In this document: positions 1 through 48,597 of the stretch, piece after piece
Layout: each line of letters begins with the position of its first letter
How positions within the stretch are numbered: the stretch's first letter is position 1
DNA from: Candidatus Bathyarchaeia archaeon
GTDB lineage: Archaea > Thermoproteota > Bathyarchaeia > Bathyarchaeales > Bathycorpusculaceae
Assembly: GCA_038882955.1 (NCBI GenBank)
Contig: JAVZNC010000001.1
Coordinates: forward strand, 1 to 64,000
Reading direction: 5' to 3'
Length of the DNA: 64,000 nt
Notes under the pieces: generated by a model
What the model saw: only the letters and a program-made list of their open reading frames with translations
Database searches by the model: none
Told to the model about the DNA's origin: nothing
Made by a program: the position numbers and the translations under genes

Positions 1-191
1 GCACAAAAACTCCACTCATCATCCCTCTGAACAGCAGTCCTACACCACATGTCGCCATCCCAATACTTTGTCACCGTAAGGAAAATATCATCCTCCCTAT
101 TCCACTTCAATGTGTTTTTAACAGCAATCTTTATCCACTCACCCTCCGGTTGCGAATTAACACACTCCCCATAACCCTTATATTCAAGCAT
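1..191 (-). CDS. hypothetical protein, 5' part (runs off window)
   Basis: ATG at 191 preceded by GGTGA; open frame MLEYKGYGECVNSQPEGEWIKIAVKNTLKW... continues to the window edge; not in the ORF track. Confidence 0.55.
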   Translation of the reverse strand, partial: MLEYKGYGECVNSQPEGEWIKIAVKNTLKWNREDDIFLTVTKYWDGDMWCRTAVQRDDEWSFC

Positions 192-278
192 ACGCCCACA
201 ATCACCACAAAATTTTCTCCAACGCCAAAAATTTAAGCTTTTTGCAAAAATTTTATAAAATAAAGCTATTTTAAGCAT

Positions 279-299
279 TTAACTACGAAACGTAGTTAA
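279..299. repeat. perfect 9-bp inverted repeat TTAACTACG-AAA-CGTAGTTAA
   Basis: Read directly; lies in an AT-rich non-coding stretch. Confidence 0.8.
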
Positions 300-567
300 T
301 TTCCGTTTTTAAAGCCAATTTTTGCTTTTAAACAGCTACGAAACTAAACATTTTTAAAGAACACAACGGTATTCCGGCAAGCTCCATAACGCCTAACAAC
401 CTCCATGGATTAGGTAACCTCACCCTCTCTAATTGCAAACAAACAACATAAACCAAAGACAAAACCACCAAAAACCACAAGCGCCTTATGGAAAATCTCT
501 GATGAAGAAAACTCAATTACAAAAAATACAGTCGTATAAAACTACAAAACTACAGAAAAACAAAAAC

Positions 568-1269
568 CTAAGAAAAAGCGCCATTCAAGGAAAGAAACTG
601 CGAAAACAAAACGAAACTATAGTCGTACACAAAATAAAAAACCAGAAAAACAGCCCGTTCTTCAAAAAAAGCCTTTAAATAAAGCTCGGCTATACACCCA
701 AAAAGATATCTTTCATTTTCAGAGATGCTTTTATTGGTTATTCGTGCTTTTATTGGGCTTGTTTTCGTGTTTGGGGCTTGGTTTGGGCTTGTTATTGGTT
801 TTTCCTCATCAGTTGTTATGGTTGTGAAGGCAAGCGGTTTTATCCATAGTTTTACCCAGATGGGGAGCGTTTCTTTTACTGCTTGTCCGAATTTTTCGTC
901 TATTGTTTTTGCGTAGGCTAGAGCGATGTTGAATTCGTTTATTGCTCGGTCTAAGGCGTTTGCCAGCGTGGCTGTTAAAGTGGGGCTTGTCAGCATCCAT
1001 TTTCCTCTTTTTACTTGGACGGCTATGCCTACTTCTTCGAATTCTGCTATGTGTCGCCATATTGTTGAGAGGTCTTTGTCAATGTAGGCTCGGAGTTCTC
1101 TTAGGGTTACTCCTCTTTTTTCTAATGTTGCCAAATATAATCCAAGAAGCACTTTCACTCTTGTTCCCATTTTGTCTTGTGGAGCCTTGAAGTTTATTCG
1201 TTGAAGGATAGCTTCTGTAAACGATTGAAGTTTTGGGTCAGTCATGTGGCGTGCCGCGAGGCATTCCAT
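568..1269 (-). CDS. winged-helix DNA-binding protein (possible Rep or regulator of the element)
   Basis: wHTH-like VTLRELRAYIDKDLSTIWRHIAEFEEVGIAVQVKRGKWML; GGAGGTGA SD upstream; C-terminal ~40 aa look like read-through into non-coding DNA. Confidence 0.65.
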   Translation of the reverse strand: MECLAARHMTDPKLQSFTEAILQRINFKAPQDKMGTRVKVLLGLYLATLEKRGVTLRELRAYIDKDLSTIWRHIAEFEEVGIAVQVKRGKWMLTSPTLTATLANALDRAINEFNIALAYAKTIDEKFGQAVKETLPIWVKLWIKPLAFTTITTDEEKPITSPNQAPNTKTSPIKARITNKSISENERYLFGCIAELYLKAFFEERAVFLVFYFVYDYSFVLFSQFLSLNGAFS

Positions 1270-1306
1270 TTATGTGTTTTTCACCTCCTATAACAGGCTT
1301 CTCATT

Positions 1307-1465
1307 GTATAGTCGTGTAGGTGTTGGGATTTAAATCTTGCTTTTTTTATTGCGTTTTAGTTGCAATAGGCTCAGAATAAGCATTTTTAAGCAATAGAAC
1401 GTCAATATTTTGTTATTCTTTGAAGAAAGGCTTTATTTACTTCATTTAAGCATGTACGACTATAG
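1307..1465. promoter_or_regulatory. divergent promoter region with two copies of a TATAGTCGT operator-like motif
   Basis: GTATAGTCGTGT at 1307-1318 and TGTACGACTATAG at 1453-1465, each just downstream of an AT-rich TATA-like box on its own strand. Confidence 0.5.
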
Positions 1466-1487
1466 GTAAAGCGAGGGATTTCCCTAA

Positions 1488-1700
1488 TTGACTGGTGATA
1501 AAAAGCTTGCAAGGCATTTGAAGAAGGATGTTAAGAAAATCTTGGTTGAGTTTGATGCACCAGAGGATTTGGTTTGCGAGTTTGACCGTATAGTCATGAA
1601 TGAGCTTAGTTATCAATCTAGATCTGAGGCGCTTCGTGAGTATATGAGGAAAGTAGTGATGGAGTATAGACCTGTGCAGCATAGAAGAGGGATCTTCTAA
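1488..1700 (+). CDS. ribbon-helix-helix (CopG/NikR-like) regulator
   Basis: ILVEFDAPEDLVCEFDRIV...YQSRSEALREYMR RHH pattern. Confidence 0.75.
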   Translation: MTGDKKLARHLKKDVKKILVEFDAPEDLVCEFDRIVMNELSYQSRSEALREYMRKVVMEYRPVQHRRGIF

Positions 1701-1927
1701 TGGCTGTTAAAGGAGTAACAAAAGAAAGAGAATGCAAAGTTAGAATTAATGCAGTTATAACCGGAGAACCAGCTAAATGGCTCATGGAATGGAAACGCCG
1801 AGGTTTAATAACCAGCTATACTGATGGAGTTATTCAAGCCTTGAAGGCTCTTAATGAAAAAATGACCGAACTGGATTTAAAGTTCATTCAGCTTAAGAAC
1901 CTTAGAAGTGATGAGGAAGAATTATAA
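1700..1927 (+). CDS. small RHH-like protein
   Basis: Translationally coupled (TAATG); VRINAVITGEPAKWLMEWKRRGLITSYTDGVIQAL. Confidence 0.6.
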   Translation: MAVKGVTKERECKVRINAVITGEPAKWLMEWKRRGLITSYTDGVIQALKALNEKMTELDLKFIQLKNLRSDEEEL

Positions 1928-2030
1928 GCGTTTTGAAATTATCTCGACTGGAAATGTAGGTTTAATGACCTCAATTTCGTCTGTTGGATTTTTATTTCCT
2001 AATTTCGTAATAAAATGAAAGGGGATAAGG

Positions 2031-2186
2031 ATGAACTTTTATCTACAATCCTATGTTGAAAGTCTATTATTAGAATGCGAAAAATGTCAGTTTATCTTTA
2101 CAAGTAACAATTTAAGTGAAAAATCTTGTCCGAAATGTGGTTCTAAGAAGGTAAAAATAAAATTTCGGTTTGTTGAATGTGAATAA
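2031..2186 (+). CDS. small zinc-ribbon protein (51 aa)
   Basis: MNFYLQSYVESLLLECEKCQFIF...SCPKCGSKKVKIK; two CxxC motifs; below the ORF-track cutoff. Confidence 0.55.
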   Translation: MNFYLQSYVESLLLECEKCQFIFTSNNLSEKSCPKCGSKKVKIKFRFVECE

Positions 2187-2255
2187 AATATGATTGTTAG
2201 TTGTCCTATCAAAACGAAATTTGCATGAAAAAACTTAATTTTATGCCAATATATA

Positions 2256-2732
2256 ATGAAGGTTATGAATGAGGGGTCTGAAAAAGATCACTTGCAAATT
2301 TATTTGTCGATTTACCAAGCATTTCTTCCTATTCTTTCATTGTTTCTTGGCTTTATTTTAGCGACTGCTGCTTTAGTGTCGTTTTTGGAGGCACCTATAG
2401 AATTGCGTCGAATTCTATTATGGCTACTCTTATCGTCATTTTTGCTAATGGATTTTGTTCTCGTTAGAACGCATGCTACGGTTATTGAAATGTTAATTAA
2501 GAGAAAAATACCTTTATTATGTCCTCCATGGAATGACGAAATTCTAACTATAGGAATATTCGTTTTATCTATTTCCTTTAGTTTTATGCTTTTAATAGGT
2601 GGGTTAACTAAATATGAAGCTATAATTTGGGGGTTTCTTTCTGTGATTTTGGCAGTTTGGTCATATTTCCGTATTCGTGGTGCTAAGAAAACTGGAGAGG
2701 AAAACAAAATATTAATTGTTTTGAAAAGTTAA
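2256..2732 (+). CDS. 4-TM membrane protein, unknown function
   Basis: Four hydrophobic segments. Confidence 0.65.
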   Translation: MKVMNEGSEKDHLQIYLSIYQAFLPILSLFLGFILATAALVSFLEAPIELRRILLWLLLSSFLLMDFVLVRTHATVIEMLIKRKIPLLCPPWNDEILTIGIFVLSISFSFMLLIGGLTKYEAIIWGFLSVILAVWSYFRIRGAKKTGEENKILIVLKS

Positions 2733-2780
2733 TAATGGTCTATTCTATCGTCAAGCCAAATATTTTAAGATTTCTGCATA

Positions 2781-4109
2781 TTATACACTTAGTTTTATAA
2801 GCAATGTATGCGTGAGAAGGTCTAAGGCATCTAAAAATGTAGATTTTTCAGATATTGGGTATTTCTGGATAAACTGATGTAACATTCTTTCCTTCCGTTT
2901 CAAATAAGAGTTATAATCTTCTAATTCTTTTCTACTCTTAAAGTATTGATTCAAGTTTATTAATAATTCACGTGAAGAAGATGCTAAGCTTAACGGAGTA
3001 ATAATAGGTGATAGAATTGGCACAGCGACGTCTGCGACCCCCAAACCTAAGGATAACGCGCTTTTCCTTAGTCCTTTAGTTATTTCCTTACGCTTTTTGT
3101 TCAGAAATTCTGGAAGCTCTTTTTCAAAAATTTCTTCGAAAGTTTCTGATATTTTGTCTATAATCTCTATTGGCTTTACTATGTCATACATGACTCCTCC
3201 AGTACCAACTTCTGCGCTCCTTACTATCTGAATGCAATTTTGAATCAAATCATCATATTTTTTCTGAAATGCACTATTTTTGAGGGGCTTTCGCAAATAG
3301 TATATATCCTCAAAAGACAATTCGTCTAAAAGCGCGACGGGTAATGGATTTTTATTAAGAATTTCGAATGCCAACTCGAAGAATATTTTTAGGAATACTT
3401 GTGTTTCAGAAAGCTTTGTTCTACGCATAGAGAAATCTGTAAGAGAATAATCAATGTAACTTTCCTGTGGTAAAGCGCTTTCACAATTAACAACTCTCGC
3501 TCCAGATATGTGATAAACGAGATTAACAAAGTTTAGAAGAGTTCTCTGTTCTTTTGGTGACCACGTTGAAATACTTTTTAGAATTAAGTCTCTGGTTGCG
3601 ACATTCTCCTTTTGTATTTCCCTTACCAACGAGTTTATTTTTTGTCTGGGTATACCTCTTAAGTTCCTCCTTATAACGGATTTTTCATCATTAAGTGCTG
3701 CTAATATTTTTTCTCTAAACCACGCTACATTCTCCATGAATTCCCAGTTTACAACTTCCTCAACATGACTCTCGTAAAAAGACTGCATTTCCTCTTTTAT
3801 AGAACTTTTTATTCGTTTACCTTTCAAATAATCGGTTACATGCTCCTTATCTTCTCGTAAGGCGGGAATAACCATTTTTTGAGCTAATAATATGGAGTTA
3901 TCTTTAAAGATACTATATGCGAATTCGCTAGCTAAATGCGAAGCAGCACACACAATATTTTTCTTAGTTAAAAGAATAATCTTTAACCTACGTTCTACTT
4001 CTCTTCTATAAACTTCAGCATCATGCTTAAATTGTACAATAGTGTAATCAAAATCTGTAAAATATGCTCTTGGTCCTTGAAAGGTTATGGGGTTTATTCT
4101 TTTTATCAT
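2781..4109 (-). CDS. hypothetical protein (442 aa) with C-terminal hydrophobic hairpin
   Basis: Long ORF; LSLGLGVADVAVPILSPIITPLSLAS segment near the C-terminus. Confidence 0.7.
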   Translation of the reverse strand: MIKRINPITFQGPRAYFTDFDYTIVQFKHDAEVYRREVERRLKIILLTKKNIVCAASHLASEFAYSIFKDNSILLAQKMVIPALREDKEHVTDYLKGKRIKSSIKEEMQSFYESHVEEVVNWEFMENVAWFREKILAALNDEKSVIRRNLRGIPRQKINSLVREIQKENVATRDLILKSISTWSPKEQRTLLNFVNLVYHISGARVVNCESALPQESYIDYSLTDFSMRRTKLSETQVFLKIFFELAFEILNKNPLPVALLDELSFEDIYYLRKPLKNSAFQKKYDDLIQNCIQIVRSAEVGTGGVMYDIVKPIEIIDKISETFEEIFEKELPEFLNKKRKEITKGLRKSALSLGLGVADVAVPILSPIITPLSLASSSRELLINLNQYFKSRKELEDYNSYLKRKERMLHQFIQKYPISEKSTFLDALDLLTHTLLIKLSV

Positions 4110-4254
4110 TGTTACACTAAATGTATGCGAATTCTTTTACTAAAACTTTATTGGAGAAGAAGAAAACAAGGTGTGGGAATTGATAATCCTCGAGGATTTT
4201 ATGAATCGATAAGTTTTTGGGCAAATTTATATTTATAGAATTACTTGAATCAAG

Positions 4255-5181
4255 ATGCCATGTTACCATATACTTGTCAGTTATAGGGATCTAAAGAATG
4301 CTTCACGATCACTTCTTTACGAGTTAGATTTATCAAAAGACGAGGTTGAAATATTTGTGGAGCAGTATTTAAAGGGGCAAGTCTTATTCAAGGGAAAATG
4401 GTTAGATGTTGCAAATATAGATGAGGTCGAAATTCTAGAAACTCGGTATCCACATGATTCGTGGTCTAATATTGTTCCTTTAGTCTCGGTAAGAGATATC
4501 ACTATTTCAAGTAGAGGACGAAATGCAAAGACTGTTACAAGAAAGTTTATCAAATTAGAACCTAATTGGTTCGTTAGAAAACATGCAAAGCACATGCCTC
4601 CAAGCAAAAATGTGTTTATAGTGCATGGAAGAGACCACAAACCAGTGAAGGAACTTGAAGTGATGCTTTCTGAATTCGGTCTCAATCCGATAATCCTTCA
4701 CGAACAACCAAGTGGAAGCAGAACAATCATTGAGAAACTTGAAAAATACTCTGATGTTGGTTATGCATTTGTGATTCTGACACCAGATGATGTGGGATGT
4801 TTTAGGAGCGATTTCATCAAATTCATGCAAGTTTTAGACGAACTTTGGAAATCAATCTATGACTATGAAACCGGGTATAACTATGTTCCCGCAGACGTTT
4901 TGGACGAACTATGGAAGCAGACATGCAATCATATTCCAGAGGGGATTCCTGGGATTGTTAGATTATTAAGATCTAGGGCACGCCAAAACGTTGTTCTCGA
5001 GTTTGGATATTTTATGGGATTGCTTGGTCGTGACAGAGTTTGCTGTTTATATAAGGGAGATGTAGAGTTACCATCGGATATGCACGGAATAATTTACATA
5101 CCTTTCAAAGAATCAGTGGAAGAGTGTCGTGATAAGATAATTAAAGAACTTAAAGCTGCTGGCTACGAAATAAAAATATAA
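4255..5181 (+). CDS. TIR-like domain protein (Cap12/Pycsar-type TIR, 'predicted nucleotide-binding protein')
   Basis: VFIVHGRD, TIIEKLE, FVILTPDD, RARQNVVLEFGYF and ELPSD motifs. Confidence 0.88.
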   Translation: MPCYHILVSYRDLKNASRSLLYELDLSKDEVEIFVEQYLKGQVLFKGKWLDVANIDEVEILETRYPHDSWSNIVPLVSVRDITISSRGRNAKTVTRKFIKLEPNWFVRKHAKHMPPSKNVFIVHGRDHKPVKELEVMLSEFGLNPIILHEQPSGSRTIIEKLEKYSDVGYAFVILTPDDVGCFRSDFIKFMQVLDELWKSIYDYETGYNYVPADVLDELWKQTCNHIPEGIPGIVRLLRSRARQNVVLEFGYFMGLLGRDRVCCLYKGDVELPSDMHGIIYIPFKESVEECRDKIIKELKAAGYEIKI

Positions 5182-5311
5182 AATTGGCAAAAGGTGGTTT
5201 TTGATAAAAGTAAGGGCGTGTTCCAAGCTCCTTTAGCTCGGATGACTCTCCCTTTTTATTCTTTTATGGGGTCCGAAGTGTGTAACACCATACAGCTATA
5301 AAAGTTTATAT

Positions 5312-5323
5312 ACCACTAGTGGT
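5312..5323. promoter_or_regulatory. 12-bp palindrome ACCACTAGTGGT, probable RHH operator
   Basis: Immediately after the TTTATATA box and before the small RHH gene. Confidence 0.5.
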
Positions 5324-5344
5324 CTGTTTATTTTGGTGTTATAA

Positions 5345-5494
5345 ATGCCCAAAAAAGAAAAAACTTCAACCTCTATAAAGATAGACCCTGAGCTTTGGAA
5401 AGAGGCGAAAATTGAAGCTATAAAAAGGGATATAGAAGTATCCGAACTTGTGGAACTTGCCTTGAAAAAAGAATTAGGTTTAAAGAGGCTCTAA
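5345..5494 (+). CDS. small CopG/RHH protein (49 aa)
   Basis: MPKKEKTSTSIKIDPELWKEAKIEAIKRDIEVSELVELALKKEL; not in the ORF track. Confidence 0.8.
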   Translation: MPKKEKTSTSIKIDPELWKEAKIEAIKRDIEVSELVELALKKELGLKRL

Positions 5495-5497
5495 AAA

Positions 5498-5958
5498 ATG
5501 AGTCATGATAAGGGAAAAGTGCTAGAGGAAACAAGGAAGGAACTTCGTCAAATGGTAGATGAAAGTTTTAAGTGGCAAAGGAAATTGAACATATGTTCAA
5601 GTATAGGCTTAAGGATGTTACAAGCGTTAAAGACCTAGAACTCATATCAGCCTTAATTACTAGATTGACGGAACAGTTAGCAGACCTAGCGATGCTTCAG
5701 TATAGAATTTTAGTGGAACTAAAGGATGCCTCCTTTTACATCTTATATGTGCCTCTCCATACAACTTTAGAGTTTAACGAAAGGACACTACCTTTGGTAG
5801 GTCAGCGACTTCAAGCATTCGAAAGTGAAGTTGAACGCTTAAAGAAAAGTAGAGAAAAGATTGTAGTTGAAGTGCGCAAAGAATACGAAGAAGCCATGAA
5901 AGAGCTCACTAAGATGTTGGAAGAACGGAAACGAAAAGAGAAAGGGATTATTGTATGA
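5498..5958 (+). pseudogene. coiled-coil hypothetical protein, apparently frameshifted near 5570
   Basis: ATG 5498 (MSHDKGKVLEETRKELRQMVDESFK) follows the RHH stop; downstream ORF 5572-5958 is in the -1 frame. Confidence 0.45.
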
Positions 5959-6167
5959 TGAATAATCCTTTACAATTAAAAAATAGCTAAGGAATCTCAA
6001 TATCGAGCCGATGGAAACTCTGGTTTATGTAATGCATTTAACAGAACCCGAAACCGAAAAACAAAAAAATCTCGAAAAACAAATGTATATTGCCCCCCTT
6101 TGGATTTATGCTGGTCCCTAAGGGGGTACGGCGATGAAACTCCAATTGGAGCGAGAGCCGATTCATT

Positions 6168-7970
6168 TTACTTGTCGATTCTAAGTTTCGATGTTTTGCT
6201 AGCTAATGCTTTTCGGTATAGAATTTCGGATTCAATATGGGTTGTACGGCAACGGGGAGACTTAATGAGGTGACATTTTGGAGCTGCTATATTTGTTATG
6301 TTTGGAGGTGATCTTATAACGAAATATCCCGGTGGCAGCTGGGAGATTCTGGATGCGAATTCTTGTAAGTCTCGGGCTTGACTTTTAATTGCTGCTTCCT
6401 CAAGATTGCCAAAAATTTTAGTTCCAACTAAGTCGTTAACAGTGGTATGGAAATCTTCTGGTGAGTGTGAAATTAAAACTAAACCAGCACCTGCAGCTCT
6501 AAAGACGCGCATTGTTTCAATAACTGTGGAAACAAGTAATTGTTGATAACCAGGTCTCGGCGACCTTGGGACAATGTAATGCGCTTCATCCAATATTTGC
6601 ATTAAATAGGGTTCTCCGGGTTTCTTTTTCTTAGCTTCAACGGATTTAAGTAGCCAATGTAATTGGAATATCATTCTAAACTCGAATGGTACTTGGCTAA
6701 CAGAAATTATATTTAGCCGAGGAGATTTCATAATTTCTTGTTCAACAAAGTCTGTGGCGCCTTCTTTATCAAAAATTTTCGATCTATCCATTGCTATAAG
6801 ATTTCTCTGGATGCTTTGTATGGTAGAAGAGTACAAACCCAAGTTACTCATTGTTTCTTGTCCATTTCTACTTAGAGACCAGTTCATCATATTATTAAGA
6901 GTCGCTTTTCCGGCTTCACCTGCATATTTACGAAAGGCATCCATGACTTGAGGGAAAAAGTCAACAGCTTGCTCGGATGGGTTTGGCATATAAAGTGCAG
7001 CAAGCTCAGCTGGTATATTGTTCCATTCAATAGTGAAGGGCTTCATGTGTTTTCTAAGTGCTTCAACATCATAGCCTTCATCCTTGAGGTAAGTAAAGTT
7101 CGGCGGATGGTCTGGCAAGTAGTATATATATGATTCGGAGATTTCCATAGGGCTAAAACCCATTTCTTCCCAGAACTTCTTGTCTTCCTCTGTAAAACCG
7201 AGTTTATCAGGTTCAGCTTTAAATATCATCTGAGCAAACTCGTCTTTAAAATCAGGGGCGATGACCACCCAATCGGATTCATATGCATGTTCTATTAGAG
7301 TTTTTGCAAGAACTGTTTTGCCCGACCCCGGTCCTCCAACTATATAAACTCCACGGAATACGGCATACGGATCTAATGGGTAAGGAAATACTTTTTCGAT
7401 ATCATTTTCCTTAAAGCGGACAATTTTCATACCTTGAACCAAGGCACCGATGGTCCACCCTTCTCTGAAAGCGTAAATTATCTTCATCTCTTGAGGCAAA
7501 GGTAAGAAGATCGGGCATCCATAAGGAACAGGGGTGATAACGGGTCTTAATGACTGGCTTTTATCGTCAACAACTCCTATCAGGTCTAGTGTGCATGTCT
7601 GAAACAATTCAGGAATTATTGACCTAATATTCTTAGACCAATTTTCGGTAAGAGGCTTCAAATCTCTGTATCCGGCATAAAGCGGGCTTTTAACACCAGG
7701 CGGAGGTTGCAGACCATGTTCTACTATTCTTGCTGCAACCTTCTCTTTAATATTATAGCTTCCTCCCTCAGTTGTATAAACACCAATGATAACGTCTGTC
7801 CCAAGTGAAACGTCAGCTTCTAACCTAAAGTTAGCTATAACGCTCATCCGTTCCTGTGTGATTGTGGCAGGGTTTAATTCGCTGGGTGCGGTAACCCCTA
7901 TTATCTTTCTTCCTGTAACTTCAAGAAACTCCTTATTTGTATTCAATCTCCCCACCCATACGCTTCCCAA
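6168..7970 (-). CDS. HerA/FtsK-like ATPase (DUF87 family)
   Basis: Walker A GGPGSGKT, PDFKDEF strand, Walker B ILDEAH, N-terminal beta-rich (HAS-like) region; start may be TTG 7946. Confidence 0.82.
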   Translation of the reverse strand: MGSVWVGRLNTNKEFLEVTGRKIIGVTAPSELNPATITQERMSVIANFRLEADVSLGTDVIIGVYTTEGGSYNIKEKVAARIVEHGLQPPPGVKSPLYAGYRDLKPLTENWSKNIRSIIPELFQTCTLDLIGVVDDKSQSLRPVITPVPYGCPIFLPLPQEMKIIYAFREGWTIGALVQGMKIVRFKENDIEKVFPYPLDPYAVFRGVYIVGGPGSGKTVLAKTLIEHAYESDWVVIAPDFKDEFAQMIFKAEPDKLGFTEEDKKFWEEMGFSPMEISESYIYYLPDHPPNFTYLKDEGYDVEALRKHMKPFTIEWNNIPAELAALYMPNPSEQAVDFFPQVMDAFRKYAGEAGKATLNNMMNWSLSRNGQETMSNLGLYSSTIQSIQRNLIAMDRSKIFDKEGATDFVEQEIMKSPRLNIISVSQVPFEFRMIFQLHWLLKSVEAKKKKPGEPYLMQILDEAHYIVPRSPRPGYQQLLVSTVIETMRVFRAAGAGLVLISHSPEDFHTTVNDLVGTKIFGNLEEAAIKSQARDLQEFASRISQLPPGYFVIRSPPNITNIAAPKCHLIKSPRCRTTHIESEILYRKALASKTSKLRIDK

Positions 7971-9061
7971 GGTGTGGATTCTGGCGAAACTATTTTCATT
8001 TTCTGGGCAAGTTTAGCCCTAAACATCTGCCTAAGTCCCTCTGATATTGAGAACTGTTCATGTGCAAGAGTTTGGTGAAGCGGTAAAAATCCTCCTCCGT
8101 TCTGGTAACTGTCTGATATTACTAGGTTTAAGATATCATCTCCTTTTTCTTTGAACATCCAGTAAAACGTTTCAATTCTAAATATCAAGTTTCGTGGTGT
8201 TAATATCCAACAAAATGTAACTTGATTTTCCTTAGTTACTCGTGGATCGCATTCGCGAATCCAGTGTGAACGCATATAATTATCTGAGCTTTTCCTTCCT
8301 TGTATCATCTTACTTAAGTAGAAAGCTCTATCATCTGAGTATTGGTCTAAGCCGAAATGCCGGACAATCGTCTGCATTCGGGGACGCTTAACAATGAATG
8401 AAACCATGCGTCCTGTCTTCTCATAAACATATCTATACGTATTTCCAAGTTTATCAATATGTTGATGACTATACGCCCTTAATGCTCCGTCAATCTCGTC
8501 GATCTTTATTCCAGGCAAATTCATTGCACTATTTATTGTTGAACGCAATTGTGTTTGCATAAAATGAGATGCAAGTCTATCTACTTGTCCCTCAATAGGA
8601 TGATGTGATGAAAGAAGATAGACGCGACTTCTTAATGAATAAGGTAGCTGCGAATTCAGAACCTCCCTGCTTCTAACGACAACAGCCCAATCTCTGGTTA
8701 CTTCCTTAGACCATTGTGGAAAATTTAACCATGTATTTACATGTCCAGAAATGCAAACTAAAATGTCATGTGTACCAAGAACCCAACGCCACAATCCCTC
8801 ATCGATTCCTACTGCTGGAAATCGACGGTCTGCCAACAAGTCATCTGTTGTTACTTCTTTCACGACCTGACCCTCGAGAACTTCTGGTTTAGCAACAATC
8901 TTCGAGTCTTGCCTTTCAATAAGCTCTTCTTCACTTTCCTGTGTTGGAGGACCGCAAACTTGAAATGATTCCGGCTTTAAAACGCGGAGTATACCCTCTG
9001 CTATCTCATCAATATCTAAATGCACCATGCTGGTCCCAGTTGAAAAAAGCGCTGACCTCAT
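7943..9061 (-). CDS. NurA-like nuclease
   Basis: AVGIDEG and IDGAL acidic motifs, FIVKRP, C-terminal LPLHQTLAHE; overlaps the HerA-like gene. Confidence 0.65.
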   Translation of the reverse strand: MRSALFSTGTSMVHLDIDEIAEGILRVLKPESFQVCGPPTQESEEELIERQDSKIVAKPEVLEGQVVKEVTTDDLLADRRFPAVGIDEGLWRWVLGTHDILVCISGHVNTWLNFPQWSKEVTRDWAVVVRSREVLNSQLPYSLRSRVYLLSSHHPIEGQVDRLASHFMQTQLRSTINSAMNLPGIKIDEIDGALRAYSHQHIDKLGNTYRYVYEKTGRMVSFIVKRPRMQTIVRHFGLDQYSDDRAFYLSKMIQGRKSSDNYMRSHWIRECDPRVTKENQVTFCWILTPRNLIFRIETFYWMFKEKGDDILNLVISDSYQNGGGFLPLHQTLAHEQFSISEGLRQMFRAKLAQKMKIVSPESTPWEAYGWGD

Positions 9062-9131
9062 TTAAAAACTTTTCCAGTGGAAATTTAGGTCATTATTTGG
9101 GTTACATTTATCAGATTTTAAGTCTTTAAGT

Positions 9132-10733
9132 TCATTTTCCTACTTGCAATAAGCATTTTTCGAACTCGTAAACATCATTGTTTTTGATAGATATCTGTGA
9201 TAGGATTTTTTCACCATTTTTAGGATTTTCCCAGATGCTCTTAAGAATATCCCTTACCTCTTTTTCATCTCTAGCAAGTTTGCATATTTTCTGGACATTA
9301 ATATTCTTCGAACATCCTCTTTTCCATAACCTTTCATTGAAATCGTTTGCCTTTAAAAGCTGGATATTCATTCTTGCCGCGTAACTCGATAAACTTATCT
9401 TTGAACCATCTTTTAGTTGAACTTTTTCACTTGGGTCGAAAGCAGAACCAGCAAAGACGCCCATTACTCCCTGCTTTATCTTTCGCCCTTCCGGAGTATC
9501 CACCCCAAATTCTTTGCTCCACAAGAGCATATTAAAGAAGTCATCAACATCTCTCTTTCTTATTAGACCCCACTTGCACTCGAGCACATAAGTTGTTGGT
9601 TGTAGTAATGGTGCCGGAGTTACATCCCAAACCCTATCAACTTCCGCATTATTCTTTCTTCCGCCCACTGACTTTATTAGATGAATCGTTATTCTCTTCG
9701 GGTCCATTGCATTATTCCGATGTCTTTGAACCCAAAAATGAGCCCCTGTGGTTAACGTGTCAATGAACCATTCGGCGCATGCCTCCCAATTATGACCTAT
9801 TCGGTTTGCTCTTCCTTTGACTTTTCTGATATAATTCTCCTTCATAGCTATTGCTGCCCTTAACTCGTCAGCGGGCATCGAGTTATGGTAGTAATAACGA
9901 TAAGCATTAAACAGTTTAACTTCTCGTATGTCTGGATAAAGTTGTATGGTTCGAGATATTGCCGTTTCAGCCTCATATTCGGAACAATTCAGCTTGTTTT
10001 TAATAAAATCAAAGCTTACCAGTTCTCTAAGCTTAGTGGACTCATATACTATGTCTTTAATTATACGAACCCTTTGTACTATTGGACTTACGGACTCGAT
10101 TTCTTTAAGCGCTAACCCAGTACGTTGAATAGCCTCTTCGAGAGCTTGCTCTCTAGGCTTATTTTGGTCGACCCATGTAAGGAGATATCCATCCCTAAAA
10201 GGAGTCTCCCCGTAATCCGTTCTGTAACCTCGAACATAAACCCAACCTTTCTTTTCGAATCTGCGAACATTCGTCATAACATCTGAAGGCTTAACTCCTT
10301 TACTCTTCAATGCTTTTGCGACCTCATTTGAAAACCAAGCCCTATTTTTGTTCTCTTTTAAAAAATCCAAAATCATTTTTGCTTTACTTCCATGCCTTCT
10401 ACCTCGTTCATCCAAATGTTCTTTTGCATATCGTACAAAGTGATAATTTTCCATTTGAACTAAATCCTTTCCAGGTGGGCGGAGTATATAGAGATAATAA
10501 GTCCGCATGTTAGAGCTAATTCCAGCTCTCCCTTTGAAAGCGCGATTCACCTCCCTTAAAGGTTTATCAGTTCGCAAAAGATATCCACGCTGCCAAAGTC
10601 TCCGCAATGCATCACCGACTAATGAACTGCGAATATTTGCTTCTTTAGCTACCTGATTAAGAGACATCGGTCGTCCATCTTGAAAAATGGTAAGAATTTT
10701 CCTCTGAACTAGACCCAATCTAGACATTTTCAA
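9132..10733 (-). CDS. multi-wHTH protein with C-terminal PD-(D/E)XK (Mrr-like) endonuclease domain
   Basis: wHTH (MSLNQVAKEANIRSSLVGDALRRLWQRGYL; WFSNEVAKAL...VRRFEKKGWV); GHNWE...EVDRVW...VLECKWG. Confidence 0.7.
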   Translation of the reverse strand: MKMSRLGLVQRKILTIFQDGRPMSLNQVAKEANIRSSLVGDALRRLWQRGYLLRTDKPLREVNRAFKGRAGISSNMRTYYLYILRPPGKDLVQMENYHFVRYAKEHLDERGRRHGSKAKMILDFLKENKNRAWFSNEVAKALKSKGVKPSDVMTNVRRFEKKGWVYVRGYRTDYGETPFRDGYLLTWVDQNKPREQALEEAIQRTGLALKEIESVSPIVQRVRIIKDIVYESTKLRELVSFDFIKNKLNCSEYEAETAISRTIQLYPDIREVKLFNAYRYYYHNSMPADELRAAIAMKENYIRKVKGRANRIGHNWEACAEWFIDTLTTGAHFWVQRHRNNAMDPKRITIHLIKSVGGRKNNAEVDRVWDVTPAPLLQPTTYVLECKWGLIRKRDVDDFFNMLLWSKEFGVDTPEGRKIKQGVMGVFAGSAFDPSEKVQLKDGSKISLSSYAARMNIQLLKANDFNERLWKRGCSKNINVQKICKLARDEKEVRDILKSIWENPKNGEKILSQISIKNNDVYEFEKCLLQVGK

Positions 10734-10879
10734 TCTATATAACTAATGCGATACCTACATATAAAGCACGTGTTCGAACAGAAAATGCTATTTAATATGT
10801 ATGCTAAAACTAAAGCAGTATTTCGATAAGGTCTATATCTGAAAAAAGCTTGAAAAGGGTTCAATTCGTTGATTTAGAG

Positions 10880-10955
10880 TGGTAGCCCGGGAGAGATTCG
10901 AACTCTCGTCAGAGGCTCCAGAGGCCTCCATGCTTGACCGCTACACCACCGGGCT
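10880..10955 (-). tRNA. tRNA-Gln(CTG), CCA encoded
   Basis: Reverse complement AGCCCGGTGGTGTAGCGGTCAAGCATGGAGGCCTCTGGAGCCTCTGACGAGAGTTCGAATCTCTCCCGGGCTACCA; A1-U72; anticodon loop CT-CTG-GA. Confidence 0.96.
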
Positions 10956-11027: not shown

Positions 11028-11258
11028 TTATTTGTTAATTTTGCCTTTCAAAGCTTCTTTTATGCAGTAACATTCTTGGCTGCTTGGGTTCCAGTGTTCA
11101 CAGCACCACAAGGTTTCAACTATGGGGTTTCTTCCCTTGCAGAAGAGCACTGAACAGAAAATTCTGTCTGGATATTCGTAAGGGGCATGATTTCCACAGT
11201 TTCCGCAACATCTCTGCGGTTCAGCATCTGCTTTCTCTTTCATTTCAGCCTCCTCCAA
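11028..11258 (-). CDS. small Cys-rich metal-binding protein
   Basis: CCGNCGNH...CSVLFC...CCEHW...CYC; overlaps the dys stop. Confidence 0.6.
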   Translation of the reverse strand: MEEAEMKEKADAEPQRCCGNCGNHAPYEYPDRIFCSVLFCKGRNPIVETLWCCEHWNPSSQECYCIKEALKGKINK

Positions 11259-12255
11259 ACTTTAATAATGCCCTGTCAAAGTTTTCGCCGAGCCTTTCAA
11301 TCGCAGAAGCAACAATTATTGGAAAAACTATCATGGCATCGCCGATAACCATAACCTTGTCCGCCTTACCCTTCACTTTGCCCCAACTAACAGTTTCAGA
11401 AAGTGTGGAACCAGATAAACCGCCAGTTTCTGGACGGTCCATGGTTATAACTATAGCGTAGTCCATGCCCTTTTTGGCAGATAAAGCTGCTGATTGAACA
11501 GTGTTTCTCGGCACTCCACCGCCAATAACTATCATGCCGTTTCTTGGAGAGTCTCTGCAAATTTCAACTATTTCTGGCACATCCTTAAAGGCGTCCAAAA
11601 CAAGTTTACAGCGCACATTCTCCTTAACTGCGTGAAGCCAGTGTATAAAGCCAAATTCCGAGTCTCTCACCGCTGGAAGAAAAATTGGCACTTTTGCCTC
11701 GTAGGCTGCCCTTAAAATCGAGTCAGGATCATTGAGGCGCTTGCCTAATTCCCACGCAAACTCCCTCGAAGATAGGCTTTCACCTTTCCTTTCGGCTGCT
11801 ATTTCCTCATACATTTCCGCAATTCTATAATCCAGCCTAGAAAAGTCTTCCTCTGGCACAAAAACATCGTATATGCGGTAAACGTGATACTTGTAGAGCA
11901 ACCAATCATCAACAGCCCAATGCCCCTTATAATGATGCCCACCCAAAGCCTCAATGGCATCATGAACCATGTTCGCGCCAGTGCTCACAATAACGTCAAC
12001 AAGCCTCTTGCGTGTAATGTCTGCGATAAGCGTTCGCAGCCCAGCTGGAACAACAGCCCCAGCAAGCGACAGAAATATTGTACATTCCTTGTCGCGTAGC
12101 ATCCGCTCATATATGTCGCATGCCGTTGATAGCCTACCAGCCCCAAACGAGCCAGCATTTTTGAATTGCTGGATAAGCTGGTCCACAGTGAGTTTTCCAT
12201 TAATCTTAATGTGCTTTACTGGTTCGGCAAGGAAGTCTTCTCTCCGCATTTTCAA
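11245..12255 (-). CDS. dys: deoxyhypusine synthase
   Basis: STGANMVHD, GGGVPRN, TGGLSGSTLSETVSWGK motifs. Confidence 0.93.
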   Translation of the reverse strand: MKMRREDFLAEPVKHIKINGKLTVDQLIQQFKNAGSFGAGRLSTACDIYERMLRDKECTIFLSLAGAVVPAGLRTLIADITRKRLVDVIVSTGANMVHDAIEALGGHHYKGHWAVDDWLLYKYHVYRIYDVFVPEEDFSRLDYRIAEMYEEIAAERKGESLSSREFAWELGKRLNDPDSILRAAYEAKVPIFLPAVRDSEFGFIHWLHAVKENVRCKLVLDAFKDVPEIVEICRDSPRNGMIVIGGGVPRNTVQSAALSAKKGMDYAIVITMDRPETGGLSGSTLSETVSWGKVKGKADKVMVIGDAMIVFPIIVASAIERLGENFDRALLKFGGG

Positions 12256-13956: not shown

Positions 13957-14030
13957 TTAGGTTTTGCTTTTTCGCTTTTTAAGAAGGATTGCCCCAGCGA
14001 CTATCACTATGATTGCTATTATGCCGCTCA
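13957..14030 (-). pseudogene. orphan 3' end of a membrane-anchored protein gene
   Basis: LSGIIAIIVIVAGAILLKKRKSKT* followed by a CCCCTTTTT tract; no intact upstream gene. Confidence 0.5.
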
Positions 14031-14711
14031 AAAATAAGTTTAAATGGCAAGGAATTCAACGTATGTGGAATTGTTGAAGGACCTTCAGCACTTCTTGGAC
14101 GTTCCATAATCATGAGCCTAGAAGAAGCTCAAGACACTTTTGGGTATCACATGTTTCTGAACATGGCAATAGTAGAGCCAACGGCAGGCACCGAACAAAA
14201 TCATCTTGCAAGTTCGATTGAAAATAACGTATCATCCGTAATGGCTCTAACAGATGAGGAACGTAACGTTTTAACAAAGCCCATCATTGACTTTGTAGGC
14301 GAGTGGAACATCGCCATTCAAATAATTCTCCTGTTTTTAAGTATGCTTTTAACGGCTATTGTTGGAATAATGAATGTTTCAGAAAGAAGAAGAGATTTCG
14401 CAACTATGGATGCAATGGGCGCACGTTCTAGCCACATTTTCAAAATTATACTGTTTGAAAATTCAATAATCGGGCTCATAGGAAGCATCCTAGGAGTATT
14501 TTTTGGCATAATCGTTGCAGCATTTCTGGCAAGCTTTTACACAACAATACCTCTTAACCAATCTTTCTTAAGCATTATAGCGATTATAAAACCAATTTAC
14601 ATTATTGAAATAGCGGGTTTTGTGGTTGCTTCATGTTGCGTGGGAGGCATAATTCCCGCAATAAGTGCCTCGAGGGTGCGGATTTCAGAAATCTTGAGGG
14701 CAGAATACTAA
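14013..14711 (+). pseudogene. FtsX/MacB-like ABC permease, 5'-truncated
   Basis: NVSERRRDFATMDAMGA and GGIIPAISASRV..SEILRAE; lacks the N-terminal TM and part of the extracellular domain. Confidence 0.65.
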
Positions 14712-15391
14712 TGAAAATTAAAACAGTGGATTTAACGAGAACATACAATTTAGGCTCTTCTGAAATAGTCGCCGTTGACAAGGTCAACTTTGAGATAAAC
14801 GCAAACCAGTTCGTCGCAATAGTTGGTCCAACAGGGTCTGGAAAAACAACGCTCCTCAACCTTATAGGATTAAATGATTATCCAACTTCTGGAAAAATTT
14901 TCATAGACGACCTTGTAGATGCGTCGTTTCTTTCAAATAAAAAGCGCAGAGCGATTAGGCTTTTCCGCATAGGCTTCATATTTCAAACCTTCAACTTACT
15001 GCCTATGCTTACGGCTTTGGAAAATGTTGAGTTGCCAATGGCTTTGGCTGACAAACCCCAAAAAGAACAGCGAAAAAACGCCGTGAAACTTCTTGAGGCT
15101 GTTGGTTTGGGCGGAAGGCTTCATCATAGACCTAAAGAGTTGAGCATGGGTGAGATGCAGCGTGTGGCGATAGCCAGAGCTTTAGCTAACAACCCCGAAC
15201 TGATTATTGCTGATGAGCCGACTGGCGAGCTTGACTCGGAAACCGCCAAAGAAATTATTGCTTTGCTTTTTAACATGAGTAAAAGCGAAAAGAGAACAGT
15301 TATTGTTGCAACGCATGACGAAAAAATTGTTGACGCTGCGGATGCAGTTTACATGATGCGTGATGGCAAGCTGAAAAGAAAGAGTGTTTAG
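14711..15391 (+). CDS. ABC transporter ATP-binding protein (LolD/MacB-like)
   Basis: GPTGSGKTT, LSMGEMQRVAIARAL, ADEPTGELD; ATG coupled to the permease stop. Confidence 0.92.
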   Translation: MKIKTVDLTRTYNLGSSEIVAVDKVNFEINANQFVAIVGPTGSGKTTLLNLIGLNDYPTSGKIFIDDLVDASFLSNKKRRAIRLFRIGFIFQTFNLLPMLTALENVELPMALADKPQKEQRKNAVKLLEAVGLGGRLHHRPKELSMGEMQRVAIARALANNPELIIADEPTGELDSETAKEIIALLFNMSKSEKRTVIVATHDEKIVDAADAVYMMRDGKLKRKSV

Positions 15392-48045: not shown

Positions 48046-48597
48046 TTGAGTTTGGAAGAAGAAAGTTTAGAGGAAAGAAAGGCGAAGATGCTCATAAAAC
48101 TTAGAGGCTACAAGCTCGTTAAAAGGGAAAAGTATGAGGATGCTGTTGGCTTTCTTGTTGAAATTCCAAAGGAGAAGGAAAAAGCCCTAATATGGTGCAT
48201 CCCAGAAGACAGCGCCGTTGGAATAACATCAATAAACCGCATGCAAAAAGTCATGAAGGAAGAAGGCATTGAAAGGGGAATAGTAATTACTGGCGGCAGA
48301 TACACACACGCCGTCAAGCAAGGCGCAAAGAAGAAGAAAATTGAGCTTTTACCAAAAACTTTTCCAGCATTCGACATTTTCGAACACAAGCTTGTTCCAA
48401 AACACGAGATCCTAACAGAGGAAGAGAAGGAGCAGCTTCTTGCGCAATATAAGGTTAAGCCTTACCAGCTTCCACAGATAAAGGCTTCAGACCCAGCCGT
48501 AAAAGCTATAGGCGCCAAGCCAGGCGACATACTACGCATAATCCGCAGAAGCCCTACAGCAGGCGAGCACATAGCTTATCGCTACGTTGTTGAATAG
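48046..48597 (+). CDS. rpoH: RNA polymerase subunit H/Rpo5 with Rpb5-like N-terminal domain
   Basis: [10 protein letters not shown]...LPQIKASDP...[13 protein letters not shown] preceded by a ~105-aa extra domain. Confidence 0.92.

Follow-up and report, generated by a model that had tools for sequence, protein, structure and literature searches.

A variable island behind a tRNA-Gln gene of a Bathyarchaeia genome: a widespread archaeal winged-helix gene and, probably as separate cargo, a HerA/NurA-like gene pair

The 64,000 nucleotides analysed here (the window; contig JAVZNC010000001.1, positions 1 to 64,000, of the Candidatus Bathyarchaeia archaeon assembly GCA_038882955.1) begin with an island of variable DNA next to a tRNA-Gln gene. 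The island seems to be best explained as a composite rather than as a three-gene system: gene A heads a tRNA-flanking element, and genes B and C form a separate cargo module, probably with a function in defence (Table 1). A is a widespread and so far unstudied archaeal gene, which in most cases directly follows a tRNA gene and marks the margin of a variable island.

Table 1 Features of the island and its tRNA-side flank (positions in the window)
Feature	Position	Strand	Basis or remark
tRNA-Gln(CTG), encoded CCA	10880..10955	-	ARAGORN and sequence; island boundary
Spacer between tRNA and A, 147 nt, within variable DNA	10734..10879	-	Sequence, same-genus blastn
Gene A, 533 aa, three wHTH-like modules and nuclease-like C-terminal region	9132..10733	-	
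Gene B, 372 aa, orphan NurA-like protein	7943..9061	-	
Gene C, 600 aa, divergent HerA/FtsK-family ATPase	6168..7970	-	
128-aa ORF, function not assigned	5572..5958	+	In the stretch absent from L006
TIR-domain protein	4255..5181	+	Pfam CAP12-PCTIR_TIR; PADLOC candidate PDC-S35, E 5e-61
442-aa ORF, without family match	2781..4109	-	
158-aa ORF, without family match	2256..2732	+	
75-aa ORF, convergent with A, member of A's small partner family	1700..1927	+	
233-aa ORF, weak HTH matches	568..1269	-	
Deoxyhypusine synthase, conserved core flank across the tRNA from the island	11245..12255	-	

According to the sequence and the ORF calls, A, B and C are co-oriented, with B running into C, as a preliminary description of this DNA had stated; they lie on the minus strand, and the overlap measures 28 nt. 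The likely true start of A is the ATG at 10727, homologues of B start at M12 (position 9028), which gives a protein of 361 aa, and the start codon of C is TTG. In comparison to the closest relative, the metagenome locus L006, dN/dS values of 0.084 (A), 0.092 (B) and 0.059 (C) were obtained; all three are real genes under purifying selection. About 2924-6050 of the window is absent from L006, and the similarity to this locus stops near position 434.

Homology with same-genus genomes (blastn) ends at window positions 10878 and 10873, that is, at the 3′ end of the tRNA-Gln, so that the tRNA marks the boundary of the island and the DNA from base 1 to 10879 is variable. Variable DNA beginning at a tRNA 3′ end was also observed in a second lineage. 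Both the tRNA-Gln directly beside the cluster and the location in a tRNA island had been described before and were found again. The first base of the window is the contig end, and the far end of the island lies beyond the contig. Within 8 kb no direct att repeat beyond chance was detected, the end of the tRNA-Gln does not recur in the window or in L006 (with the contig stopping short of the island's far side), and none of the window ORFs contains a tyrosine or serine recombinase domain.

The preliminary description had proposed A, B and C as one candidate defence system, with A as the sensor and nuclease for foreign DNA and a dedicated HerA-NurA machine for its resection. Co-orientation and close spacing of the three genes in the window as well as in L006, together with the purifying selection on all of them, would fit such a unit. 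However, the linkage pattern makes it very improbable. Whereas B and C adjoin or overlap each other in 5/5 loci (the window and the metagenome loci L006-L009), A lies upstream of the pair in just one of the four metagenome loci, L006, and not directly upstream in L007, L008 and L009; conversely, neither B nor C was found within about 8 kb of A in any of 74 other A loci, and in size the A family exceeds that of B or C about a hundredfold. Furthermore, a small partner gene of A is present in 30/62 eligible loci and lies convergent within 200 bp of A in 14 of those, but its copy in the window sits 7.2 kb beyond A, with B, C and the TIR (PDC-S35) gene in between. Everything between the two is therefore regarded as cargo, and the position of the partner beyond B-C points to an insertion of the pair between A and its partner. 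Since A is not linked to B-C, no evidence is left for a sensor nuclease with its own resection machinery. By eye, the partner ORF of the window has the look of a ribbon-helix-helix protein.

A shows MarR/HTH_24 matches in Pfam, and three wHTH-like modules are confidently modelled, in addition to an extra helical tail. Beyond the wHTH part no Pfam, NCBIfam or PDB match was obtained, and the nuclease-like region has a pLDDT below 50 in the structure model. Nevertheless, E317, E364, D366 and K387 are conserved in 50/50 full-length copies, and E385 of the 'ECK' motif is E in 32/50 and S in 18/50 of them. Of the proposed architecture of several wHTH domains plus a PD-(D/E)XK nuclease, the first half is thus confirmed, whereas the second is a motif without profile match, and a nuclease activity of A is putative. 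Mrr-type type IV restriction enzymes combine wHTH with PD-(D/E)XK. A resembles them in its N-terminal winged helix and its D...(E/S)xK-type motif, but differs by its three wHTH modules, the helical tail, the association with tRNA genes and the missing Pfam Mrr_cat match (hhalign probability against Mrr_cat 0.65%). Mrr_cat and NERD clusters are found among the language-model neighbours of A (Atlas, 0.88), which can serve as a lead only. On visual inspection, Mrr-type cores also show a likeness to the pattern D...(E/S)xK...GVFAGSAF...NIQLL of A.

The A family comprises at least 734 relatives among 5.8 billion clusters, with 56-62% identity across several archaeal lineages. Its distribution is that of an accessory gene: A is present in 4/41 relatives and in 0/3 same-genus genomes, one genome carries 5-6 copies and another one two, and some copies are frameshifted. 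A tRNA gene on the same strand lies 105-201 nt upstream of A in 38/50 testable loci, compared with such an upstream tRNA for 5/656 long ORFs of the window's own genome. These 38 comprise 24 intron-free tRNA calls, representing 13 anticodons and 8 amino acids, and 14 intron calls; at nine of ten further loci the contig begins inside a tRNA 3′ end. A complete adjacent tRNA gene is missing at the remaining 12 of the 50, in agreement with Rfam for the 10 of them that were searched. Units of about 2.5 kb consisting only of A and the small gene are common to different tRNA-gene sites with 82-88% identity, and two of them occur within one genome. Elsewhere, restriction-modification (RM), pAgo, Schlafen, HEPN and UvrD-PDDEXK genes were found downstream of A. 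A was not found in IMG/VR or in the plasmid and phage collections searched.

A is probably the hallmark gene of a patchy, sometimes multi-copy archaeal element family whose members immediately follow tRNA genes and share their orientation. As the element's own DNA-targeting protein it would recognise the tRNA-gene end by its three wHTH modules and cut by its nuclease-like domain, and would act in insertion or maintenance of the element. The role as a mobility enzyme is doubtful, given the lack of att repeats, the recombinases beside A at some loci and the 12 loci without a complete tRNA. Alternatively, A could be a passenger, namely a stand-alone Mrr-like defence nuclease (wHTH plus restriction fold) or a regulator occupying an att-proximal slot in islands whose tyrosine integrases, encoded elsewhere, are responsible for the movement. 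This is a serious possibility, though it is rated as the less probable one: four loci have a tyrosine recombinase gene immediately upstream of A and one (L024) has it downstream, defence genes are abundant in A-headed islands, and both the Mrr_cat/NERD neighbours and the Mrr-like pattern mentioned above would suit a passenger. The minimal 2.5 kb units at different tRNA genes argue against it, as does the poor alignment to Mrr_cat. In addition, according to Pfam, no tyrosine recombinase follows A on its contig in five genomes with about 11 copies; the only Phage_integrase matches of the genome with 5-6 copies are two weak ones, neither of them on a contig with A, and another of the five has no tyrosine recombinase match at all.

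Site- and orientation-specific insertion after the 3′ end of a conserved gene is also a feature of Tn7 at attTn7, where TnsA is a restriction-fold nuclease and TnsD binds the target, and of free-standing homing endonucleases. By analogy, a putative restriction-fold nuclease gene, A, would be the first gene at that end. Unlike in Tn7, however, genes similar to TnsB or TnsC are missing, and neither terminal repeats nor duplications of the target were defined. Tyrosine integrases and att repeats define the cryptic integrated elements of a Thaumarchaeota survey, which are reported to be integrated at tRNA genes, to have short and easily missed att sites and to carry RM and wHTH/RHH genes as cargo (PMC6563490). 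The window shares with these elements, as described there, the variable DNA beginning at the tRNA 3′ end, but neither a tyrosine integrase nor att repeats were found in it; the A family is not mentioned in the passages of the survey that were consulted (PMC6563490).

Judged by its sequence, C belongs to the HerA/FtsK-type ATPases, and its catalytic set is intact. It matches Pfam DUF87 with 34.1 bits (cut-off 23.2) and, in a PDB profile search, the HerA-like protein YjgR (E 1.7e-4); Walker A (GGPGSGKT), Walker B (LDEAH) and the arginine finger R491 are invariant. The motif SHSP, on which the description as a divergent HerA had been based, indeed stands opposite TNQP and TQRI in the alignment with the two other HerA-type proteins of the genome. 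The PADLOC models mad8 (2.9e-12) and HerA (2.2e-10) match C, but as the housekeeping HerA scores as well (1.8e-13), these matches are valid at family level only. The 5.8 billion clusters contain seven relatives of C, its clade occurs in just one of 41 genomes, the window's own, and C was not found in IMG/VR.

B, likewise with seven relatives in the 5.8 billion clusters, is more difficult to place. Its match to Pfam NurA stays below threshold (17.2 bits, cut-off 21, E 0.0037), whereas the housekeeping NurA of the genome (363 aa) reaches 34 bits. An hhalign comparison with a Pfam-typical NurA is weak (5.8% probability, E 0.0065, residues 205-348), though with the motif order kept, and with the lineage's own NurA the probability is 0.2% (positive control 94.9%). 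The motifs GIDEG, IDGAL, VKRP, FRIET and AHE were recognised by eye; D87, D191, E297 and H334 are invariant in 7/7 sequences, their assignment to NurA motifs also being made by eye. The earlier assignment as NurA-like is therefore retained in part: it is based on the sub-threshold Pfam match, the language-model neighbours and the weak hhalign match, besides the position overlapping herA, and the low level of the Pfam and hhalign scores speaks against it. B is probably a very divergent NurA-like protein with a putative nuclease role. That it is no nuclease, and that the HerA-type ATPase is instead paired with a new and unrelated kind of adaptor or effector, appears unlikely. Such a partner would explain why a profile of B, searched against 1.84 billion representatives, returns nothing beyond its own cluster, why a PDB profile search gave no match, why hhalign to NurA alignments is not significant and why the AF2 model, built from seven sequences, is unusable (mean pLDDT 31.7). 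On the other hand, the three best language-model neighbours of B (Atlas) are NurA clusters (0.89-0.90, 180-188 shared features), the Pfam and hhalign matches fall on the same C-terminal region in the same motif order, and both the size of 361 aa and the overlap with the herA start correspond to the genome's own NurA.

Archaeal HerA-NurA is a DNA end-resection complex, usually encoded in an operon with mre11-rad50. B-C is similar in that its HerA-family ATPase gene begins within the end of a gene for about 360 aa, and the ATPase motifs of C are intact, although the NurA signal of B is weak. However, no mre11/rad50-type domain is present among the ORFs scanned around the cluster, in line with the earlier observation. 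B-C is also additional to the housekeeping set, as had been supposed, since a separate conserved NurA-HerA pair is encoded on contig 7 of the same genome. From this pair B-C differs by its location in a variable island and its accessory distribution, its clade being found in 0/40 relatives, besides the sub-threshold Pfam score of B and the SHSP of C.

SIR2-HerA and DUF4297-HerA are reported as defence systems consisting of HerA plus an effector (PMC11472057, PMC11514289, PMC11291478). As a two-gene combination of a HerA ATPase and a partner in a defence-island context, B-C resembles these systems as outlined there, but B shows no SIR2 or DUF4297 signal and no PADLOC match, and the PADLOC HerA and mad8 models fit C no better than the housekeeping HerA. 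The opinion that the combination is not a named system agrees with the PADLOC HMMs, which gave no named system match.

A rather unlikely alternative is that B-C serves the mobile element itself by processing DNA ends when an integrated plasmid-like element is replicated, repaired, packaged or transferred. C has weak matches to DNA-translocating ATPases (NCBIfam CedD, E 0.0003; PHROG terminase, E 0.00015), and a DUF87-HAD gene adjoins A in L024. Against this, neither A nor C was found in IMG/VR, nor A in the plasmid and phage collections, and among the genes of the window island none was recognised as serving replication or conjugation or as encoding a capsid. B-C was moreover found in three different neighbourhoods with defence-type genes in each, comprising the PDC-S35 TIR gene, PD-T7-4, a ThsB-like gene, a type II MTase and a DrmC-like PLD nuclease.

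From this gene neighbourhood B-C is probably an accessory ATPase-nuclease module for defence. As a strictly paired cargo module, it may work by the C ATPase feeding DNA to the B nuclease, and would degrade the linear or nicked DNA of invaders, adding to the defence alongside the TIR gene as an accessory module.

The three genes near the beginning of the contig, designated here A (winged helix-turn-helix modules, wHTH, and a nuclease-like domain), B (NurA-like) and C (HerA/FtsK-type ATPase), are present as minus-strand open reading frames (ORFs), and the preliminary description was largely right in what it observed. B and C overlap by 28 nt. In comparison with the closest relative of this region, the metagenome locus L006, the dN/dS ratios of A, B and C are 0.084, 0.092 and 0.059, and therefore all three are real, constrained genes. 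The GC content is 0.30-0.40 over the window positions 1-10000 and 0.42-0.45 past the tRNA gene. The window begins at the first base of the contig, so that the island region is cut at its far end.

Genes and flanking features of the island region in the window
Feature	Position	Strand	Remarks
Gene A	10733..9132	minus	ORF of 533 aa
Gene B	9061..7943	minus	ORF of 372 aa; M12 is the start in all homologues
Gene C	7970..6168	minus	ORF of 600 aa
tRNA-Gln(CTG), CCA encoded	10880-10955	minus, as A	147 nt upstream of A
Deoxyhypusine synthase, core gene			On the other side of tRNA-Gln from A

A, B and C had been proposed to form one defence system. Among 5.8 billion clusters, however, relatives of A number at least 734 (56-62% identity, full length; source labels including Bathyarchaeota, Freyarchaeota and Nitrososphaeria), compared with seven each for B (58-100% identity) and C (69-94%). 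A metagenome scan with C alone yielded no loci and a scan with an alignment yielded four, in all of which B and C are adjacent or overlapping. L006, with the same tRNA-Gln and 84% DNA identity to the window, is the only one of them with A upstream. No A was found in the 8.9 kb upstream of B in L007, in 2.8 kb in L008 or in 0.77 kb in L009, a span that would have shown the end of A. Conversely, none of 74 A loci from species-representative genomes has a tblastn match to B or C. Outside L006 the nuclease-like gene is thus unlinked to this herA/nurA clade, and the three-gene interpretation is wrong. This keeps a false three-gene defence system out of the catalogues and leaves a clean candidate of two genes, one for a HerA-family ATPase and the other for its orphan partner, which is possibly derived from NurA.

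B-C is additional to a separate housekeeping pair on contig 7. There a NurA gene (363 aa, 34 bits) overlaps a HerA gene (487 aa) in a housekeeping context, with orthologues in loci of 11 relatives. On contig 3 (177876-181638; L124:1876-5638) there is a third gene of the HerA type, for a 624-aa DUF87 ATPase that is matched at 3e-42 by the PADLOC HerA model with the label 'Type III coevolved'; its partner, a protein of 638 aa with no family match, overlaps it. A 638-aa frame in a same-genus genome gives a weak NurA match. An hhalign comparison of B with the 638-aa partner found no relationship.

C belongs to the HerA/FtsK-type ATPases: it matches Pfam DUF87 with 34.1 bits (cut-off 23.2), HerA_C weakly and, in a PDB profile search, the HerA-like helicase YjgR (E 1.7e-4), and its Walker A, Walker B and R491 are invariant. 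The SHSP motif of C is aligned to TNQP and TQRI in the other two HerA-type proteins of the genome. The PADLOC models mad8 and HerA match C at 2.9e-12 and 2.2e-10; since the housekeeping HerA is matched no less well (1.8e-13), these matches are family-level only. No named system among the PADLOC HMM models fits, in agreement with the earlier statement that the combination is not a recognised one.

The assignment of B is less firm. Its Pfam NurA match is below threshold (17.2 bits, cut-off 21), a B profile retrieves its own cluster alone among 1.84 billion representatives and has no match in the PDB, and hhalign gives 0.2% probability against the NurA alignment of the lineage itself (control, NurA alignment against NurA alignment: 94.9%). 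Against Pfam-typical NurA, residues 205-348 reach 5.8% (E 0.0065) with the motif order preserved, and the top three Atlas feature neighbours of B are NurA clusters (0.89-0.90, 180-188 features in common). The AF2 model, built on an alignment of seven sequences, is unusable (mean pLDDT 31.7). 'Divergent NurA-like' is therefore the best available label for B, a tentative member of the family at most.

Another part of the preliminary description, the position of the cluster in a tRNA island, was borne out by two genomes of the same genus. Homology spans the deoxyhypusine synthase and tRNA-Gln and ends at window positions 10878 and 10873, at the 3' end of the tRNA gene. The stretches beyond it, of 4.8 kb and 6.9 kb, have no match to the genome of the window or to each other and carry other accessory genes (PIN, AAA_14/DUF4143, radical SAM). 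In a Nitrososphaera-type lineage the flank homology likewise stops at the tRNA end in many relatives, and an orthologous site reads ...GCACC followed by TTCC... where empty versus ...GCACCA followed by TCTTAC... where occupied (one of the three loci compared is from the unpublished genome G051, of which the claim is independent). A unit of about 2.5 kb is repeated in this lineage at 82-88% identity beside different tRNA genes, twice in one genome. It comprises A with a promoter-like box (CCTTAAAT), a small gene convergent with A, and GGTACCA/GGCACCA palindromes in an array. The palindromes may represent protein-binding sites. The array, with about 8-10 copies (L036:9950-10270 and equivalents in L038-L044 and L058; e.g. 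TGGCACCAGTGGTGCCA), is located between the small gene and the end of the shared unit. Inside it, about 2.4 kb downstream, the tRNA acceptor end recurs imperfectly (CCCCCGCAC[T]A); this copy is not callable as attR because conservation runs past it.

A is present in four of 41 related genomes, the window's own included, and in none of three same-genus genomes (93-98% complete). The copies in related genomes are 57-58% identical to that of the window, which is no higher than for copies labelled as coming from other phyla, and conservation across archaeal phyla is about 60% identity. Copy number reaches 5-6 in the genome G042 and two in G041; some copies are frameshifted or fragmentary. Among 50 loci with enough upstream DNA, 38 have a tRNA gene on the same strand ending 105-201 nt before A, and in nine of ten further loci the start of the contig falls within a tRNA 3' end, at the distance to be expected; as a control, of the 656 ORFs of 300 aa or more in the genome to which the window belongs, only 5 have such a tRNA. 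Intron-free calls (24 of the 38) cover 13 anticodons and eight amino acids; the other 14 contain introns and their identities are unreliable.

The 12 exceptions comprise one locus with a tRNA 3' fragment, four with a tyrosine recombinase, three with a conserved non-coding stretch and four with none of these; Rfam detected no adjacent tRNA in the ten examined. In the four recombinase loci (L018, L021, L023 and L030) an ORF of about 180 aa, the recombinase (about 315 aa) and A form an apparent operon in which the recombinase stop lies about 10 nt before A, and no tRNA was found within 4.6-8 kb upstream. The non-coding stretch (L049, L063 and L071), located about 150 nt upstream of A (GGTGGACCGGGCTAT...GGGTTAAGAGCC...), has no Rfam match in L049 and L063 and may be another structured-RNA gene or the end of an element.

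The A protein matches MarR and HTH_24, and the family is currently annotated as a MarR or winged-helix regulator only. No description of it was found in full-text literature searches or in passages of PMC6563490 and PMC11529989, and PHROGs yielded no useful information on either A or B. The AF2 model shows three wHTH-like modules, predicted with confidence, as well as a helical tail, and leaves the proposed nuclease core (residues 328-460) unmodelled. E317, E364, D366 and K387 are present in all 50 full-length copies, position 385 being E in 32 and S in 18, and an hhalign alignment with Mrr_cat was negative (0.65%). Foldseek searches of the PDB with the model returned only multi-wHTH proteins (TM 0.10-0.16), which would indicate a likeness of tandem wHTH modules and nothing more. 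The best matches of the wHTH array are eukaryotic TFIIIC tauB and Pol III RPC62. TFIIIC tauB binds the B-boxes of tRNA genes; given the association of A with tRNA genes, the match is a curiosity and not evidence.

The small gene that usually follows A directly was found in 30 of 62 eligible A loci (33-78% identity to its window member, ORF 1700-1927 on the plus strand), and in 14 loci it is convergent and less than 200 bp from the stop of A. The distance is 4.1 kb in L006 and 7.2 kb in the window, where A is separated from its usual partner by B, C, a TIR gene and three unknown ORFs; about 3.1 kb of this (about 2924-6050), including the TIR gene, is extra in comparison with L006. B-C is read as cargo inserted into an A-headed island, that is, variable DNA starting at a tRNA 3' end. 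Its neighbours are a TIR protein matching the PADLOC candidate PDC-S35 (5e-61) in the window, PD-T7-4 (6e-23) and a ThsB-like TIR (8e-12) in L006, a type II methyltransferase, a DrmC-like PLD nuclease and PDC-M57A in L007, and a weak Csx3-like match only in L008. Confined to defence-type neighbourhoods, B-C extends the theme of HerA plus effector.

At 36 further A loci, 105 downstream ORFs were scanned, no more than the first three that reach 140 aa being taken from each locus; nine loci that were redundant or fragmentary were excluded, as were four ORFs that were doubtful or had been covered before. Most of the ORFs gave no family match. The recognisable genes are mostly restriction-modification (RM) methylases, type I subunits, pAgo with helicase, UvrD-PDDEXK, Schlafen/AlbA_2, HEPN, NB-ARC and DDE transposases; Phage_integrase was found once. 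In L017 (2962-6984; MAG labelled Archaeoglobaceae) a Piwi-domain (pAgo) gene and an adjoining helicase are directly downstream of A. L012 and L020 (also L022 and L079), from two MAGs, have 7.9 kb downstream of A in common at 90% DNA identity, with A genes only 69% identical that follow different tRNAs (Leu-tag versus Gln-ttg); the same cargo is attached to different A alleles.

Most likely, then, the locus is a variable island next to a tRNA gene, with an unstudied gene family of wHTH and nuclease-like parts at its head, and the rare module of HerA-family and NurA-like genes is its cargo, which probably serves in defence; what B-C does and how A works as an enzyme are what we infer. A could itself be a mobility enzyme. 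The compact units of about 2.5 kb hold nothing else of size, and no Pfam tyrosine recombinase was found downstream of A on the same contigs in five genomes with about 11 copies, one genome being without any. However, an integrase gene lies directly upstream of A in four loci, and A is absent from the plasmid and phage collections and, like C, from the IMG/VR viral contigs. Moreover, no direct repeat above the reverse-complement control length was found within 8 kb for the tRNA-to-A segment, and the window and L006 each contain the 15-nt end of tRNA-Gln only once. A derivation of the spacer upstream of A from a split SSV-type integrase gene was rejected by eye because the spacers are unlike the 3' end of the integrase gene preceding A in the four loci.

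Going further, it is conceivable, though rather unlikely, that A defines a new type of archaeal mobile element. With its three wHTH modules and a domain like a restriction fold, the A protein would recognise tRNA 3' ends and direct insertion immediately behind the CCA, no tyrosine, serine or DDE recombinase being involved. A landing pad between A and the small partner would gather cargo for defence and DNA processing, among it the HerA/NurA-like orphan pair, RM systems, pAgo and TIR genes. If true, the element would be a tRNA-targeted 'island seeder' across Bathyarchaeia, Nitrososphaeria, Hadarchaeota and Asgard-labelled lineages. As the head of a variable island, A marks the tRNA-proximal edge of defence-rich regions and can be multi-copy where the same contigs show no integrase. 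As a targeting or insertion enzyme it would represent a new mechanism of mobility and would be of practical use as a marker in finding archaeal defence islands; as a passenger nuclease it would still be a very common, unstudied defence-island gene.

Elsewhere in the window, ORFs for an FtsX-like permease (14013-14711) and an ABC ATPase (14633-15391) overlap by about 80 nt as listed, which may be a mere matter of start-codon choice. A Mrr_cat-domain ORF (48082-48351, plus strand; 36 bits) lies in an open frame of 198 aa and has orthologues of similar size in many relatives.
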